Part shown: in pieces, positions 31,303-37,317 of the stretch | Layout of the letters: each line of letters starts with the position of its first letter | How positions within the stretch are numbered: position 1 is the stretch's first letter | Origin: Escherichia coli | GTDB taxonomy: Bacteria; Pseudomonadota; Gammaproteobacteria; Enterobacterales; Enterobacteriaceae | NCBI RefSeq assembly: GCF_003018255.1 | Contig: NZ_CP027440.1 | Length of the DNA: 64,000 nucleotides | Strand: one strand, 5' to 3' | Translations under genes and position numbers: made by a program | The notes under the pieces: generated by a model | What the model was told of the DNA's origin: nothing | What the model saw: only the letters and a program-made list of their open reading frames with translations | Databases searched by the model: none

Positions 31303-32331
31303 TTATGCAGTAACGACTTCCGGTATCAGCGAAGCAATTTGCTTACGCCATTGCGCTTGCTCCTGTTCGCCTTCTGTACGTTGACCATAAAGTTGCGCTA
31401 TCTGCGTACCATCATGGGCAAACAATTCCAGACTGGTTACGTAGCCATCGCTGGTCGGTTTACGGGTAACCCAGGCTTCAGCAATGCTCTCTTCTAATAG
31501 ATGAAGAGTAAACGTCGGGTTGAAAATATTCAGCCAACCTTTCATTGGCACCACTTTTTCTACCACACCAGTGAAAATCTGTACGCAGCCACGGTTGCCA
31601 ACAAACACCATGATTTCATTGCCATCCTGCTGTGCAGATTCAAGAATTTGCGCCAACGCACTGTTGGATACTTTGCAGGCCAAATCATCTGCCACCAGAT
31701 TGAACGCCTGTTGGCGCGTCAGGTTGTGGCGCTTGAGCAACGTAAAAAACTGATGAACGTCGGTCATCGCCCGCCACTCTTGCTCGACCACACTGGCATC
31801 GGCTCGCGTTTGAACAACTGGCGCATCAACGGCTTTTAACTCAAGCGGCATATTCTCATCGGCGATAAACCGTGCCAGAAGCTCACTCCATGCCGCCATA
31901 TCGGTATTGTCGGTGGCATAAACTTTTAGTAATGCATCGCCCTGATGATCAAAGAACTGAATACTCTGGCGTTCGCCACGAGTCGTATTTTCTTTAATGT
32001 GAAAAACACTGGCCCATTGATTGAGAAACAGACGCAAATCCAGCGCGCGTGGATTGAGGATCAATCCGGCATGTCCGTTCAAATGCTGGTTTGTGAACGC
32101 ACCAACTTGCTCATGGACTGCATATTCATTACGACAAATACATTTGGTCTCGCCAACACTTTCGAGCGCCGCCAGAATTTCACGGATATCGCCGCGCATC
32201 CGCCACGCATCGTGCGTGACGCGCGCAAATGCCAGTTCTGCTTCGCTAATATTCATTAAACCTGCGATGTCACGCGCGTACTTTCCGGGATTTTGTTCTT
32301 TTAACTCAAGCCAGCGTGTGTAGTGGTTCAT
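31303..32331 (-). CDS. chuS: Haem oxygenase / haem-degrading protein
   Basis: 342-aa ORF recognised as ChuS/HemS family; downstream of chuA on the same strand. Confidence 0.85.
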   Translation of the reverse strand: MNHYTRWLELKEQNPGKYARDIAGLMNISEAELAFARVTHDAWRMRGDIREILAALESVGETKCICRNEYAVHEQVGAFTNQHLNGHAGLILNPRALDLRLFLNQWASVFHIKENTTRGERQSIQFFDHQGDALLKVYATDNTDMAAWSELLARFIADENMPLELKAVDAPVVQTRADASVVEQEWRAMTDVHQFFTLLKRHNLTRQQAFNLVADDLACKVSNSALAQILESAQQDGNEIMVFVGNRGCVQIFTGVVEKVVPMKGWLNIFNPTFTLHLLEESIAEAWVTRKPTSDGYVTSLELFAHDGTQIAQLYGQRTEGEQEQAQWRKQIASLIPEVVTA

Positions 32332-32379: not shown

Positions 32380-34362
32380 TTACCATTGATAACTCACGAA
32401 AATTTTTCCATTACGACCATCCTGTGGGATGCCTTGTGGCGACCAGTACTCTTTGTCGAAAGCGTTACCCAACACCAAAGTAGTGGTCATACCTTTGAGC
32501 GCCTGTTGTCCTTGATAACTGACGTAGAAATCATTCACGCCATAGCCTGGTTGTTTGCTGTAACTGCTGCTGATATGTGTTGAGCGATCGGCAAACGTAC
32601 CAACCCACCCAACAGAGAAGCCACTGTGAGCGATCGGAATATTCAGGGTGCTGGTAACGGTATCCGGGTTAATACTGGAGATATATTCGCCGGTATCGGT
32701 GTCTTTGCCGCGGGTACGGTTATAGGCCACATCAAGGCTAAACAGATCAGTGGTATATTTCGTCATCACATCCCAACCCCAGATTTTGGCGTTCGGGACG
32801 TTATACGACATAGTTGTCGCCGCCGCGAAATCGACGGTCGTGGAGATGTAATCCTTCGCTTTGGTATCAAAGTAGCTGGCTTTAAATTCCAGAGCATCAT
32901 TGGACAACATCAGGTCATCAAAACGCAGCCCAAAACCGTACTCCTGAGTTTCGTTAGTTTCCGGACGTAAGTTCGGGTTTGGCACCCAATAGTTGGTATA
33001 GAAGCGACCAATCGAGAAGTGCTTAGAATCGTTATACATTTCGCCCATCGTCGGGGCGCGGAATGCCTGAGCATATGAGCCAAATAACATCAGCCAGTTA
33101 GTCGGGTTGATAGTCATCCCCGCGCGAGATGACCATTTGTCGGCATCAACATCTTTGTAGCCGTCGCTGCTACCGCGATAACTGTCATAGCGGGTTCCGC
33201 CAAGCAGGGTAATCGGCAGATCGCGTAAGGTGATCTCATCTTGTAGCCAGCCAGAGCTAAAATCGATTTTTGCTTGCGGGAAGCCCGTCGTCGCGCCACC
33301 CGGATGTTGTTCCTGACGATAATACTCACCGCCATATGTCAGTAAGTGAGAAGCGAAACTGTCGGCAAATAGAGTGGAACGGTTCTCCAGCCTTGCTCCT
33401 TTTGTTATCTGTTCACGATACTCGCCGGAACTCCCCGTGTTTTGCGCATTAATACGGACTTCCGACCAGTAAATTTTTGCATCTGCATTTAACCAGTCGT
33501 TACCCTGCGGGGCGAGTTTATAAGAAAGCTGCGCATCGCGTTGAATTGTTGAACGATCGACCATCGGGTTGCTGCTATCAGAAGCTTCAACGGTCTGCGG
33601 ATTTTTTGGTTCACGCGCGTCGTTGTTGTAGTAACGCACTAAACCGCTCAGAGACTGAGCTGAATCAATTTGCCAGGTCCCTTTCGCCAGCATGTTATTA
33701 ATGGATTCGTCATTCGGCGCGGTTTCACCATTGCTCTGGCGTAAATCACCCCGATCGCGACTGGACCAGGCCACAATACCATCCAGATTTTCAGTTCGCC
33801 CAAACGCGCTCGCGCCTAATCCCAGGCTATGGTCCCCCGTGCCGCCAGTACCAAAGACACGAAAACCACTGCTTTGTCCTTCCTGCAATAAATCTTTTGC
33901 ATCGACCGTATCGTAGGAGATCACTCCACCCAGCGCGCCACTGCCATACAGTAATGCTGAAGGTCCGCGAACAATCTCAACACGCTTGATCAGCGCCGGA
34001 TCGAGAAAAGTGCCATTCAGGTGTCCGGTATCCGTTCCCTGGCGAACACCATCGACAAGAACCAGCACGCCGCGATGATCATAGCCACGCATATTTACAT
34101 CCTGACCGTTGGTTCGTCCGGTACCATCAAGAGTAATTCCAGGAACATGACGCAGCAGATCGGTGGCTGAAGTAGCCGTTTGATTTTCAGGAGCGGAAGT
34201 GTCGATGACGCTGACCATCATAGGCGCTTCGAAGGAACTACGGGCATTCCCCGTTGCCGTAACGGTCATGGTTTCAGTAGCAAAAGCAAACGTTGGCAAG
34301 GTGGCAGAAACAGCCAAAGCCAACAAACTCAAACGCAACGAGGTAAATTGCGGACGTGACAT
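32380..34362 (-). CDS. chuA: TonB-dependent outer membrane haem/haemoglobin receptor
   Basis: 660 aa; signal peptide, plug domain, C-terminal beta-barrel ending in aromatic residue (...YQW); SD GGAG 8 nt upstream of ATG. Confidence 0.9.
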   Translation of the reverse strand: MSRPQFTSLRLSLLALAVSATLPTFAFATETMTVTATGNARSSFEAPMMVSVIDTSAPENQTATSATDLLRHVPGITLDGTGRTNGQDVNMRGYDHRGVLVLVDGVRQGTDTGHLNGTFLDPALIKRVEIVRGPSALLYGSGALGGVISYDTVDAKDLLQEGQSSGFRVFGTGGTGDHSLGLGASAFGRTENLDGIVAWSSRDRGDLRQSNGETAPNDESINNMLAKGTWQIDSAQSLSGLVRYYNNDAREPKNPQTVEASDSSNPMVDRSTIQRDAQLSYKLAPQGNDWLNADAKIYWSEVRINAQNTGSSGEYREQITKGARLENRSTLFADSFASHLLTYGGEYYRQEQHPGGATTGFPQAKIDFSSGWLQDEITLRDLPITLLGGTRYDSYRGSSDGYKDVDADKWSSRAGMTINPTNWLMLFGSYAQAFRAPTMGEMYNDSKHFSIGRFYTNYWVPNPNLRPETNETQEYGFGLRFDDLMLSNDALEFKASYFDTKAKDYISTTVDFAAATTMSYNVPNAKIWGWDVMTKYTTDLFSLDVAYNRTRGKDTDTGEYISSINPDTVTSTLNIPIAHSGFSVGWVGTFADRSTHISSSYSKQPGYGVNDFYVSYQGQQALKGMTTTLVLGNAFDKEYWSPQGIPQDGRNGKIFVSYQW

Positions 34363-34651
34363 AGCGATTCTCCATGAGGAAAATAAAAAATGCTGGCTGC
34401 CTGGGTTAATACCGGGGTGGCTGGCGAAAAATAAATTTATTTAAAATTCAGAGCGATAATATTCGCCGGGTGAGTTTACAGGCGTTTATATCCCATGAAA
34501 TTGCCTGGTATCTCGGCAAATACGCAAAAGCACGCCCTCTTTGTCAGGCAAACCGATATGCCCCATCAGGAGTGAAGAGCGCTGTGCGTTACCCCTTGTA
34601 AATGATATGGCTTTGTTATCCATATGGCCGTATTTTGTTAAATGCAAACGT

Positions 34652-34670
34652 GATAATGAGAATTATTATC
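34652..34670 (-). promoter_or_regulatory. Fur box upstream of chuA
   Basis: GATAATGAGAATTATTATC, close match to the Fur consensus GATAATGATAATCATTATC; about 290 bp upstream of the chuA ATG, implying a long 5' UTR. Confidence 0.7.
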
Positions 34671-35003
34671 GATCAATTTTTTATGATCAAGCTTTTTTTT
34701 AACCGCCATTAACACAATAAACAGGGGGTTATGAAACTTATCCTGCGCCCTGGAAACCACTTTGCTTTTATGGTTATTCCCCCATGACCTCATCACTAAA
34801 CTTTGTCGTTAACAGTGATAATTTTCTCTTCTCTTTGCTCTGCAAGCCGCGATATCTCTGGGTTCTCAGCTTTTTCCCGCGCTGAAATTTAGTCGGTAAC
34901 AAGAACGTTAGCTGACGAAGCATCTTGATAAAAATCAAAAATAAATACGCTTGTAACGCCGTGCGTATTGAATCGACGGTTGTATTTCATATATAACTCA
35001 AAT

Positions 35004-35022
35004 GATAATCATGATCATTCTC
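35004..35022 (+). promoter_or_regulatory. Fur box upstream of chuT
   Basis: GATAATCATGATCATTCTC immediately upstream of the proposed chuT start. Confidence 0.65.
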
Positions 35023-35045
35023 AATTTGATAAGAGTTCTCATATT

Positions 35046-35960
35046 ATGCCAAGGATCATCACCAGGCCGTTTCTTTTTTCCCCACTGACGTTATGTATTT
35101 CAGCCGTGGCCTCTGCCGCGAAGACCGCGGTAAAACGAAAAAAATTGTTTACGGCAGTACTGGCTCTTAGCTGGGCTTTTAGCGTAACGGCTACCGAACG
35201 TATCGTGGTCGCAGGAGGATCGCTGACGGAGCTAATCTACGCGATGGGCGCTGGCGAACGCGTGGTTGGTGTCGATGAAACGACATCTTATCCACCAGAA
35301 ACCGCCAAACTGCCGCATATTGGTTACTGGAAACAACTCAGCAGCGAAGGCATTTTGTCACTTCGCCCGGATAGCGTAATTACCTGGCAGGATGCAGGAC
35401 CGCAAATTGTGCTCGACCAACTGCGGGCGCAAAAAGTCAACGTCGTCACTCTGCCGCGTGTACCAGCCACCCTTGAGCAGATGTACGCCAACATTCGCCA
35501 ACTGGCAAAAACGTTACAGGTTCCTGAACAAGGCGAGGCGCTGGTGACACAGATCAACCAACGCCTGGAGCGAGTACAGCAAAACGTGGCGGCCAAAAAA
35601 GCCCCGGTTAAAGCCATGTTTATTCTCTCCGCAGGCGGAAGTGCGCCACAGGTTGCCGGTAAAGGCAGCGTCGCGGACGCCATTCTTTCGCTTGCCGGAG
35701 CAGAAAACGTCGCTACCCACCAGCAGTACAAAAGCTACAGCGCGGAATCGCTGATTGCGGCTAACCCTGAAGTGATTGTCGTCACCTCACAAATGGTCGA
35801 TGGCGATATTAATCGGCTACGTTCTATTGCCGGAATTACCCACACTGCCGCATGGAAAAACCAGCGCATTATCACCGTTGATCAAAACCTGATTCTGGGA
35901 ATGGGTCCGCGTATTGCTGATGTCGTTGAGTCTTTACACCAGCAGCTTTGGCCGCAATAA
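35046..35960 (+). CDS. chuT: Periplasmic haem-binding protein
   Basis: Class III periplasmic binding protein sequence; start is uncertain. The ORF track begins at 34968, but that ATG lies upstream of the Fur box, so the second ATG at 35046 is chosen. Confidence 0.7.
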   Translation: MPRIITRPFLFSPLTLCISAVASAAKTAVKRKKLFTAVLALSWAFSVTATERIVVAGGSLTELIYAMGAGERVVGVDETTSYPPETAKLPHIGYWKQLSSEGILSLRPDSVITWQDAGPQIVLDQLRAQKVNVVTLPRVPATLEQMYANIRQLAKTLQVPEQGEALVTQINQRLERVQQNVAAKKAPVKAMFILSAGGSAPQVAGKGSVADAILSLAGAENVATHQQYKSYSAESLIAANPEVIVVTSQMVDGDINRLRSIAGITHTAAWKNQRIITVDQNLILGMGPRIADVVESLHQQLWPQ

Positions 35961-35979: not shown

Positions 35980-37317
35980 ATGAACACAAATAACACCCTG
36001 GATCTCACGCCACATTTTGCTTTAGACGGTGATCAGCCATTTAAAGACAGGCGCGCCATGATGCCGTTTCGTGGGGCCATTCCAGTTGCCAAAGAGCAAC
36101 TGACACAGACCTGGCAAGAGATGCTCAATCAAACGGTATCACCACGTAAGCGACTGGTTTATCTACACATTCCTTTTTGTGCGACACACTGCACGTTTTG
36201 TGGTTTTTATCAGAACCGTTTTAATGACGATGCGTGTGCTCATTATACCGACGCCCTGATTCGTGAAATAGAAATGGAAGCAGACAGCGTATTGCATCAG
36301 TCTGCCCCCATCCACGCGGTCTATTTCGGTGGCGGTACGCCTTCCGCGCTTTCAGCACACGATTTGGCCAGAATCATCACCACATTACGAGAAAAGCTGC
36401 CACTGGCCCCTGATTGTGAAATCACTATTGAAGGCCGGGTACTGAATTTTGACGCTGAGCGAATCGATGCTTGCCTTGATGCTGGAGCAAACCGCTTCTC
36501 AATTGGTATTCAGTCGTTTAACAGCAAAATCCGCAAGAAAATGGCCCGCACCTCGGATGGCCCAACCGCTATTGCGTTTATGGAAAGCCTGGTCAAACGC
36601 GACCGTGCCGCGGTGGTCTGTGACCTGCTGTTTGGTCTGCCGGGTCAGGATGCGCAAACCTGGGGAGAAGATCTGGCTATTGCCCGCGATATCGGTCTCG
36701 ACGGCGTCGATCTCTATGCGCTCAATGTCCTGCCCAATACACCGCTGGGCAAAGCCGTGGAAAATGGGCGTACTACCGTGCCCTCTCCGGCAGAACGTCG
36801 CGATCTTTACCTGCAAGGGTGTGATTTTATGGACGATGCCGGTTGGCGCTGCATCAGTAACAGCCACTGGGGCCGTACCACACGCGAACGCAATCTCTAT
36901 AACCTGCTGATTAAACAAGGTGCCGATTGTCTGGCCTTTGGTTCCGGAGCCGGCGGTTCGATTAATGGTTACTCCTGGATGAACGAACGCAATCTTCAGA
37001 CCTGGCATGAATCCGTCGCAGCAGGTAAAAAACCGCTGATGATGATCATGCGTAACGCCGAACGTAACGCGCAGTGGCGTCATACCTTGCAGTCGGGCAT
37101 TGAAACGGCGCGTGTACCGCTGGACGAACTTACGCCACATGCCGAAAAACTCGCGCCGTTACTGGCCCAGTGGCACCAAAAAGGCTTAAGCCGCGATGCG
37201 TCAACGTGTCTGCGGTTGACCAATGAAGGTCGTTTCTGGGCAAGCAACATTTTGCAGTCTCTTAATGAACTGATTCAGGTACTTAATGCGCCAGCAATTG
37301 CGCTTGAAAAACCATAA
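35980..37317 (+). CDS. chuW: Radical SAM haem-degrading methyltransferase (anaerobilin synthase)
   Basis: 445 aa with radical SAM motif CATHCTFC. Confidence 0.85.
   Translation: MNTNNTLDLTPHFALDGDQPFKDRRAMMPFRGAIPVAKEQLTQTWQEMLNQTVSPRKRLVYLHIPFCATHCTFCGFYQNRFNDDACAHYTDALIREIEMEADSVLHQSAPIHAVYFGGGTPSALSAHDLARIITTLREKLPLAPDCEITIEGRVLNFDAERIDACLDAGANRFSIGIQSFNSKIRKKMARTSDGPTAIAFMESLVKRDRAAVVCDLLFGLPGQDAQTWGEDLAIARDIGLDGVDLYALNVLPNTPLGKAVENGRTTVPSPAERRDLYLQGCDFMDDAGWRCISNSHWGRTTRERNLYNLLIKQGADCLAFGSGAGGSINGYSWMNERNLQTWHESVAAGKKPLMMIMRNAERNAQWRHTLQSGIETARVPLDELTPHAEKLAPLLAQWHQKGLSRDASTCLRLTNEGRFWASNILQSLNELIQVLNAPAIALEKP

Follow-up and report, generated by a model that had tools for sequence, protein, structure and literature searches.

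The chuT gene of the window (the whole 64,000-nt stretch of E. coli DNA analysed here) most probably starts at the ATG at position 35046, a start set by the Fur operator shortly upstream of it, and the 330-aa open reading frame (ORF) that runs through this operator is best read as an artefact of a long open frame (rough probability 0.85). Both elements are already known, the Fur operator lying at a mapped chuT transcription start and ATG 35046 being the annotated start codon. The result is mainly one of annotation hygiene, as longest-ORF calling would yield a 330-aa ChuT whose first codon lies in an apparent -35 element. In addition, the correct start ties chuT to two published controls, Fur/iron and temperature, acting on a virulence-associated haem-uptake operon.

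The chu/shu locus for haem uptake lies in the window, with genes assigned from ORF sizes and order (chuA and chuW are also annotated in the matching RefSeq genomes, where chuA and chuW/hutW flank shuT/chuT in the same arrangement):
31303-32331, minus strand: chuS
32380-34362, minus strand: chuA
35046-35960, plus strand: chuT/shuT coding sequence, 304-aa periplasmic haem-binding precursor (PGAP annotation in three genomes)
35980-37317, plus strand: chuW (hutW)
downstream of chuW, plus strand: chuX, chuY and chuU

The longest chuT ORF does open at 34968 (a TTG, 330 aa), as the earlier note had it, and an in-frame ATG follows at 35046-35048. RefSeq/PGAP uses this ATG in all three genomes inspected, and the corresponding ShuT/ChuT proteins (WP_001562253.1, WP_001363063.1 and WP_001400450.1; 304 aa) share start codon, length and neighbours (chuA and chuW/hutW) with the window protein, from which they differ by allelic variation only. 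The 304-aa form dominates a cluster of 2700 proteins, and at least five gene models coexist publicly for chuT (330, 304, 278, 271 and 238 aa), the 271-aa models including S. dysenteriae 1617. NCBIfam holds no ShuT/ChuT-specific model giving a curated length, sub-threshold matches to BtuF and IsdE being the only ones returned. Across the six Escherichia lineages compared, ATG 35046 is the sole candidate start conserved in all, and the frame is kept from this ATG onward, with a single indel of 9 nt. Upstream of it, one divergent Escherichia lineage (L005) carries a 1-nt insertion between the Shine-Dalgarno (SD) region and the ATG that breaks the frame of the long ORF, and none of the homologues compared conserves the longer N-terminus. 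The public 330-aa models include a metagenome-assembled genome labelled Bacteroides heparinolyticus and a locus labelled Collinsella, probably through E. coli contamination of bins.

Transcription of S. dysenteriae shuT begins 42 nt ahead of its start codon, as mapped by RT-PCR walking and 5'-RACE (Wei, Kouse & Murphy, 2017, MicrobiologyOpen 6:e00442, PMC5458455). This geometry fits the window exactly, since 42 nt upstream of 35046 is 35004, the first base of the Fur box. The shuT promoter insert in the same study was 62 nt long, beginning 26 nt ahead of the promoter and ending at -1, so that the promoter spans -36 to -1, and -36 counted from 35004 is position 34968. The region upstream of the ATG would thus be organised as follows:
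34968-34973, plus strand: likely -35 hexamer TTGAAT (placed from the -36 limit)
34992-34997, plus strand: likely -10 hexamer TATAAC (read from the sequence using the published start site)
35004, plus strand: chuT transcription start (+1), transferred from the S. dysenteriae 5'-RACE
35004-35022, no strand assigned: Fur operator, 16/19 consensus match, equal to +1 to +19 by the published start site

The exact hexamers TTGAAT and TATAAC are likely, and are our own assignment from the letters of the window. TATAAC follows the -35 hexamer after an 18-nt spacer and ends 6 nt before +1; it is invariant in six Escherichia lineages, and the -35 hexamer (TTGAAT or TTGAAC) is conserved across Escherichia. 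A promoter scan overlooked TATAAC because it demands a T at the sixth position of the hexamer. From the -35 hexamer through the ATG, the window is identical to eight loci whose encoded ShuT is the same as the S. dysenteriae crystal protein in its mature part, and no stretch is better conserved out to E. albertii than the block made of promoter, Fur box and SD, which is nearly invariant. Every stated feature of the S. dysenteriae shuT promoter and 5' UTR (Wei, Kouse & Murphy, 2017) fits the window, and no differences were found in the regulatory region. We infer that the published results carry over to the window; they were obtained in S. dysenteriae, on what appears to be the same sequence. 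Near the box the promoter scan gave a single plus-strand match, TTCTCA-18-TATTAT (35018-35047), from which the transcript would begin beyond the ATG; it was rejected because the region held three matches against 2.4 expected and because the RT-PCR/5'-RACE start contradicts it.

The Fur box, GATAATCATGATCATTCTC, lies at exactly the position that the earlier note had claimed for it (35004-35022) and matches 16 of the 19 positions of the palindromic consensus used here (GATAATGATAATCATTATC, 19 bp; three mismatches), with the same score on both strands. With at most three mismatches to GATAATGATAATCATTATC, the whole 64 kb window contains two sites, 35004-35022 and 34652-34670, both in the chuA-chuT intergenic region and each matched on both strands, the motif being palindromic. 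Shuffled sequences gave an expectation of 0.02 sites per window, and the observed count was reached in 0 of 100 shuffles. In E. albertii, 18 of the 19 bases of the box are retained. For S. dysenteriae shuT, a 19-nt Fur site with three mismatches is published at +1 to +19, purified Fur binds the 42-nt leader specifically by EMSA, the promoter alone confers no iron regulation, the leader suffices for fur-dependent iron regulation, and removal of the first 5 nt of the site abolishes regulation (Wei, Kouse & Murphy, 2017); in uropathogenic E. coli CFT073, ChIP work lists chuTWXYU in the direct Fur regulon. The 35004-35022 site is a real Fur operator of chuT, one already published for shuT of the E. 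coli/Shigella haem-uptake system. Transcription would begin at 35004 from TTGAAT (34968-34973) and TATAAC (34992-34997), and under plentiful iron Fe-Fur would bind +1 to +19 and repress it. The Fur box of the earlier note is borne out, with its placement refined: the box adjoins the promoter, its first base lying 6 nt beyond the end of the -10 hexamer, and sits at the transcription start rather than over the -35 and -10 hexamers. Fur sites usually overlap the -35 element, and a position downstream of the promoter is unusual.

This unusual position, together with the AT-richness of the intergenic region, could be taken to mean that the match is chance AT-rich sequence without regulatory role. 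We regard this as vanishingly improbable given two sites where 0.02 are expected, both between chuA and chuT, the published EMSA and deletion data (Wei, Kouse & Murphy, 2017) and a near-invariance out to E. albertii (18/19 bases). Very improbable as well is that the 330-aa ORF opening at TTG 34968 is the real gene, transcribed from a promoter further upstream, with the Fur box acting as an intragenic roadblock. The frame is indeed open from 34968, a few public records annotate 330 aa, and Fur sites within coding regions are known (discussed in Wei, Kouse & Murphy, 2017); against this, RT-PCR and 5'-RACE detected no transcript upstream of the position equivalent to 35004 (same study), no SD precedes TTG 34968 (dG +0.6 kcal/mol), PGAP uses another start, and the 1-nt insertion in L005 breaks the frame. 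The 26 extra residues are moreover hydrophilic and acidic, unlike the n-region of a signal peptide (MNRRLYFIYNSNDNHDHSQFDK is a peptide segment belonging to this long form). The earlier note had named a transcription start mapped upstream of 34968, and homologues consistently carrying the longer N-terminus, as findings that would count for the long form; the mapped S. dysenteriae start is the equivalent of 35004, downstream of 34968, which leaves TTG 34968 outside the mRNA and the longest ORF unusable, and the longer N-terminus is conserved in none of the homologues. Being at -36, TTG 34968 also coincides with the first bases of the likely -35 hexamer, so that the "start" of the long ORF would sit, untranscribed, in the promoter. 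Mapped start site, RefSeq annotation and conservation thus agree with the earlier preference for ATG 35046 over 34968.

The leader between +1 and ATG 35046 is expected to respond to temperature as well as to iron. The 42-nt shuT leader is an RNA thermometer, from which gfp fused at the ATG gave more translation at 37°C than at 25°C while its mRNA stayed unchanged; in RNase T1 probing, the guanines of the SD opened as the temperature rose (both G residues open at 37°C), and a mutant construct, pD-UTR (U15A/U16C, Figure 7 legend), was designed to destabilise the hairpin (Wei, Kouse & Murphy, 2017). The corresponding features of the window are:
35004-35048, plus strand: 42-nt 5' UTR plus ATG, predicted to form a single weak hairpin (hsp17-like RNA thermometer; from our fold and the published description)
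35031-35035, plus strand: Shine-Dalgarno-like AAGAG, 10 nt before the ATG, with weak anti-SD pairing (-2.4 kcal/mol)

Folding of 35004-35048 gave one hairpin, with A14-U18 paired to A29-U33 (the SD region) and a dG of -5.8 kcal/mol. It contains exactly two G-C pairs, pairs U15/U16 with the SD and leaves G25 in the loop, in agreement with the published description; G25, G30 and G32 of the window equal G27, G32 and G34 of the paper, assuming that the probed RNA has two extra 5' bases. Its stability is that of shuffled sequence (z 0.14), a lack of extra stability that is expected for a thermometer. The leader has been likened to the Synechocystis hsp17 thermometer, in which all of a short UTR goes into one hairpin that pairs the SD fully with an anti-SD and has an internal loop and few G-C pairs (Wei, Kouse & Murphy, 2017). 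Our fold agrees with features of this type (whole short UTR in a single hairpin, SD paired, few G-C pairs), although the two leaders share no sequence homology and belong to different genes in different organisms. AAGAG is conserved in all Escherichia lineages. The leader would accordingly be a weak hairpin that masks AAGAG at 25°C and opens at 37°C, and the opened form would allow translation from ATG 35046 into the 304-aa precursor. No Rfam family covers the shuT leader, and a hammerhead HH9 match further downstream (35099-35174) scored 20 bits against a threshold of 52 bits and was dismissed as chance.

A separate ATG within the Fur box opens a 25-codon ORF (35011-35088, plus strand) in a frame other than that of chuT; it starts 7 nt from the 5' end of the transcript, without an SD, and is probably meaningless. 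In L005, the 1-nt insertion joins this frame to chuT.

For S. dysenteriae, then, the transcription start, Fur binding, iron and temperature control, and leader-driven reporter translation at the ATG are all published (Wei, Kouse & Murphy, 2017). As we read them, the reporter data indicate that the leader can initiate translation at the ATG position, the native N-terminus of ChuT being a separate matter for which ATG 35046 is the best-supported candidate. Among the points against this ATG are its weak SD (AAGAG at 10-nt spacing) and the length of the presequence that it implies. The ShuT crystal structure (2R7A) aligns to residues 75-330 of the long ORF over 256 residues (E = 8e-162), with two residue differences from the window protein (T76 for A and E189 for D), and PF01497 (Peripla_BP_2, a type III periplasmic binding protein) is precomputed for the homologues. 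As the first residue of the crystal chain aligns to A75, the 304-aa precursor would have a presequence of ~48 aa, which is unusually long and atypical against the 18-19 aa found in 91 of the 120 homologues listed. Mature ChuT is predicted to begin at about A75/T76 of the long ORF, and the mature periplasmic haem-binding protein would thus start near residue 75, after this presequence of ~48 aa.

Hydropathy divides the presequence into two hydrophobic segments, codons 38-48 and 62-71 (numbered from 34968), separated by KTAVKRKK:
35046-35138, plus strand: Escherichia-specific N-terminal extension MPRIITRPFLFSPLTLCISAVASAAKTAVKR, lacking in non-Escherichia homologues and weakly constrained (hydropathy peak at codons 38-48)
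35139-35192, plus strand: ancestral signal-peptide core KKLFTAVLALSWAFSVTA, with a V-T-A cleavage motif (hydropathy peak at codons 62-71)

Immediately before the first residue of the crystal chain stands an n-h-c core (KRKK, LFTAVLALSWAF, SVTA), with cleavage expected after A75 (SVTA|TE). A protein begun at ATG 35046 would carry two hydrophobic segments before its mature domain, the first with a candidate cleavage motif, A-S-A|A, at codons 48-51. The hydrophobic export segment LFTAVLALSWAFSVTA (codons 60-75) is retained whichever of the two starts is used, as previously noted. E. coli alleles are ~99% identical over the segment compared and so are uninformative for codon-level constraint. Comparison with E. 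albertii and two divergent Escherichia lineages gave dN/dS ratios of 0.38-0.75 for the N-terminal extension (31 codons; the counts are small and this value is indistinguishable from 1), 0.05-0.14 for the signal-peptide core (17 codons) and 0.03-0.06 for the mature domain (255 codons). The high ratio suggests that the amino-acid sequence of the extension hardly matters, and with an extension that is nearly neutral, coding constraint gives no proof of its translation.

Homologues from other genera place the start differently. HmuT/ChuT-type proteins of Citrobacter, Kluyvera, Raoultella, Klebsiella, Providencia and Proteus (274-279 aa) have a mature domain 57-88% identical to that of ChuT and share with it the downstream chuW/hutW, the signal-peptide core and the cleavage region, but their start is a conserved MKK that lies 54 nt ahead of the mature end. 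The earlier statement that ChuT is shorter than the longest ORF is therefore true yet understated, since the 304-aa form still extends ~27-30 aa beyond these homologues at its N-terminus. Outside Escherichia, the T gene lies directly after, and on the same strand as, a gene for a TonB-dependent haem receptor, whose stop codon is 2 nt before the ATG. Within 400 nt upstream of the T gene in these loci, no Fur box with at most four mismatches was found except for one four-mismatch match, in L024, which overlaps the MKK start codon and is taken as chance. Judging from the loci compared, Escherichia/Shigella alone have the divergent promoter, the Fur box, the thermometer and the upstream ATG.

The upstream receptor of the non-Escherichia loci (L008-L038, positions ~266-1447) is a TonB-dependent haem/haemoglobin receptor of another family than ChuA, and tblastn of ChuA against these loci returned no match. 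In L010 the receptor ORF has 392 aa and matches profile positions 296-660; it may be interrupted.

The position of the MKK start gives substance to a real but weaker rival to ATG 35046, in which the mRNA begins at 35004 and ChuT is made mainly, with a signal peptide of normal length, from GTG 35106 (284 aa, beginning MASAAKTAVKRKKLF) or from TTG 35145 (271 aa), ATG 35046 being an in-frame leader-peptide start or a minor start. We consider this unlikely. Such a start fits the homologues of other genera, which have an 18-aa signal peptide and begin 54 nt ahead of the mature end, and it fits the dN/dS of 0.4-0.75 across the 31-codon extension; GTG 35106 would give a textbook n-h-c signal peptide (29 aa, net charge +5), and some submitters annotate the 271-aa form, S. 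dysenteriae 1617 included. In contrast, no SD-like sequence precedes GTG 35106 (dG +0.3 kcal/mol), the SD of TTG 35145 is marginal and badly spaced and its product would have a signal peptide without a charged n-region, and other Escherichia keep neither the GTG nor the TTG (they have GCG or ATA at codon 47 and CTG at codon 60). The published leader furthermore drives regulated translation from the ATG position (Wei, Kouse & Murphy, 2017), and ribosomes starting at 35046 would read in frame through the GTG and TTG anyway.

Residue numbering in the ShuT literature also speaks for a downstream start. A paper citing the ShuT structure work gives Tyr67 as the haem ligand, as if structural biologists had assumed such a start. 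In the long ORF, the Tyr of HIGYWKQ is number 120, and Tyr67 therefore counts from codon 54 and not from codon 27 (ATG 35046). The ligand would presumably be Tyr94 when numbered from ATG 35046, a number that our literature searches did not support. Codon 54 (35127-35129) is polymorphic, being GCG (Ala) in the window, ACG in O145 and ATG in a B2-type allele (S88). In the B2-type allele this ATG would begin a canonical 22-aa signal peptide (MVKRKKLF...SVTA), matching the Tyr67 numbering, and the exact S88-type 60-mer containing it occurs in at least 424 complete E. coli genomes. In loci for a ShuT of the S. dysenteriae type, codon 54 is ACG, and codons 53-54 differ from those of the window. Exact look-up in a large protein collection found S. 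dysenteriae-type full-length variants with TA and with ST at codons 53-54, and for this ShuT neither TM at these codons nor a 277-aa form; exact look-up of the 271-aa protein of S. dysenteriae 1617 gave no match. A difference in the start used would explain residue numbers in the ShuT literature that do not seem to count from the annotated ATG.

With ATG 35046 as the preferred start in Escherichia, the two arrangements might be related through migration of the start codon. The upstream ATG and the ancestral MKK ATG occur together in E. albertii and two divergent Escherichia lineages (L005-L007), the MKK ATG having been removed in E. coli, the window included, by a deletion:
35138-35139, plus strand: site of a 9-nt deletion (from alignment with E. 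albertii and two divergent lineages; placement within an A-run is ambiguous)

The ribosome-binding site of the ancestral MKK ATG is a weak GGA with stop-start coupling in other genera, and nothing clear is seen in Escherichia. One tentative reading, somewhat less likely than not, is that the chuT start codon moved upstream and that E. coli/Shigella then lost the ancestral start. Ancestrally, the T gene would have followed the receptor gene on the same strand; in Escherichia, chuT would have come to head a divergent operon with a new promoter, Fur operator, thermosensing leader and upstream ATG, former leader sequence becoming a nearly neutral N-terminal extension of ~30 aa. The 9-nt deletion would then lock ChuT to the temperature-gated upstream start and its two-part presequence of ~48 aa, and B2-type alleles would later have gained the codon-54 ATG, which might permit initiation that bypasses the thermometer. 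We met no description of the start migration or of the 9-nt loss of the ancestral ATG, with literature searches that were not aimed specifically at either. If correct, this comparative detail would be a small, tidy example of a start codon migrating after locus rearrangement, and a modest evolutionary footnote.

The deletion abuts a homopolymer of seven A (35138-35144). Two single metagenomic contigs (P0008 and P0012) encode frameshifted N-termini, the shift of P0008 being read in or near the A-run; these may be sequencing errors.

In one locus with S. dysenteriae-type ShuT (L040), the downstream chuW/hutW is called in two pieces (154 and 258 aa, from position 1935 onward), and no chuW gene is called in L043 and L046, which suggests a disrupted radical-SAM haem-degradation gene in this lineage.

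On the chuA side, the second Fur box, GATAATGAGAATTATTATC at 34652-34670, has two mismatches and is thus a better match than the chuT box. It overlaps a promoter-like site on the minus strand (TTGATC-17-AATAAT, 34690-34662), ~290 nt upstream of the chuA start, and the two together presumably form the chuA/shuA promoter, with a long 5' UTR. In S. dysenteriae, shuT is divergent from shuA/chuA and more than 300 nt separate the two transcription starts (Wei, Kouse & Murphy, 2017), a spacing that the 34652-34670 site fits, at ~350 nt from the chuT start. Rfam places a match to shuA_thermo (RF02597, the FourU thermoregulator of the shuA/chuA 5' UTR) right at the chuA start codon (34360-34391, minus strand), scoring 60.1 bits against a gathering score of 58 (E = 9.5e-9).
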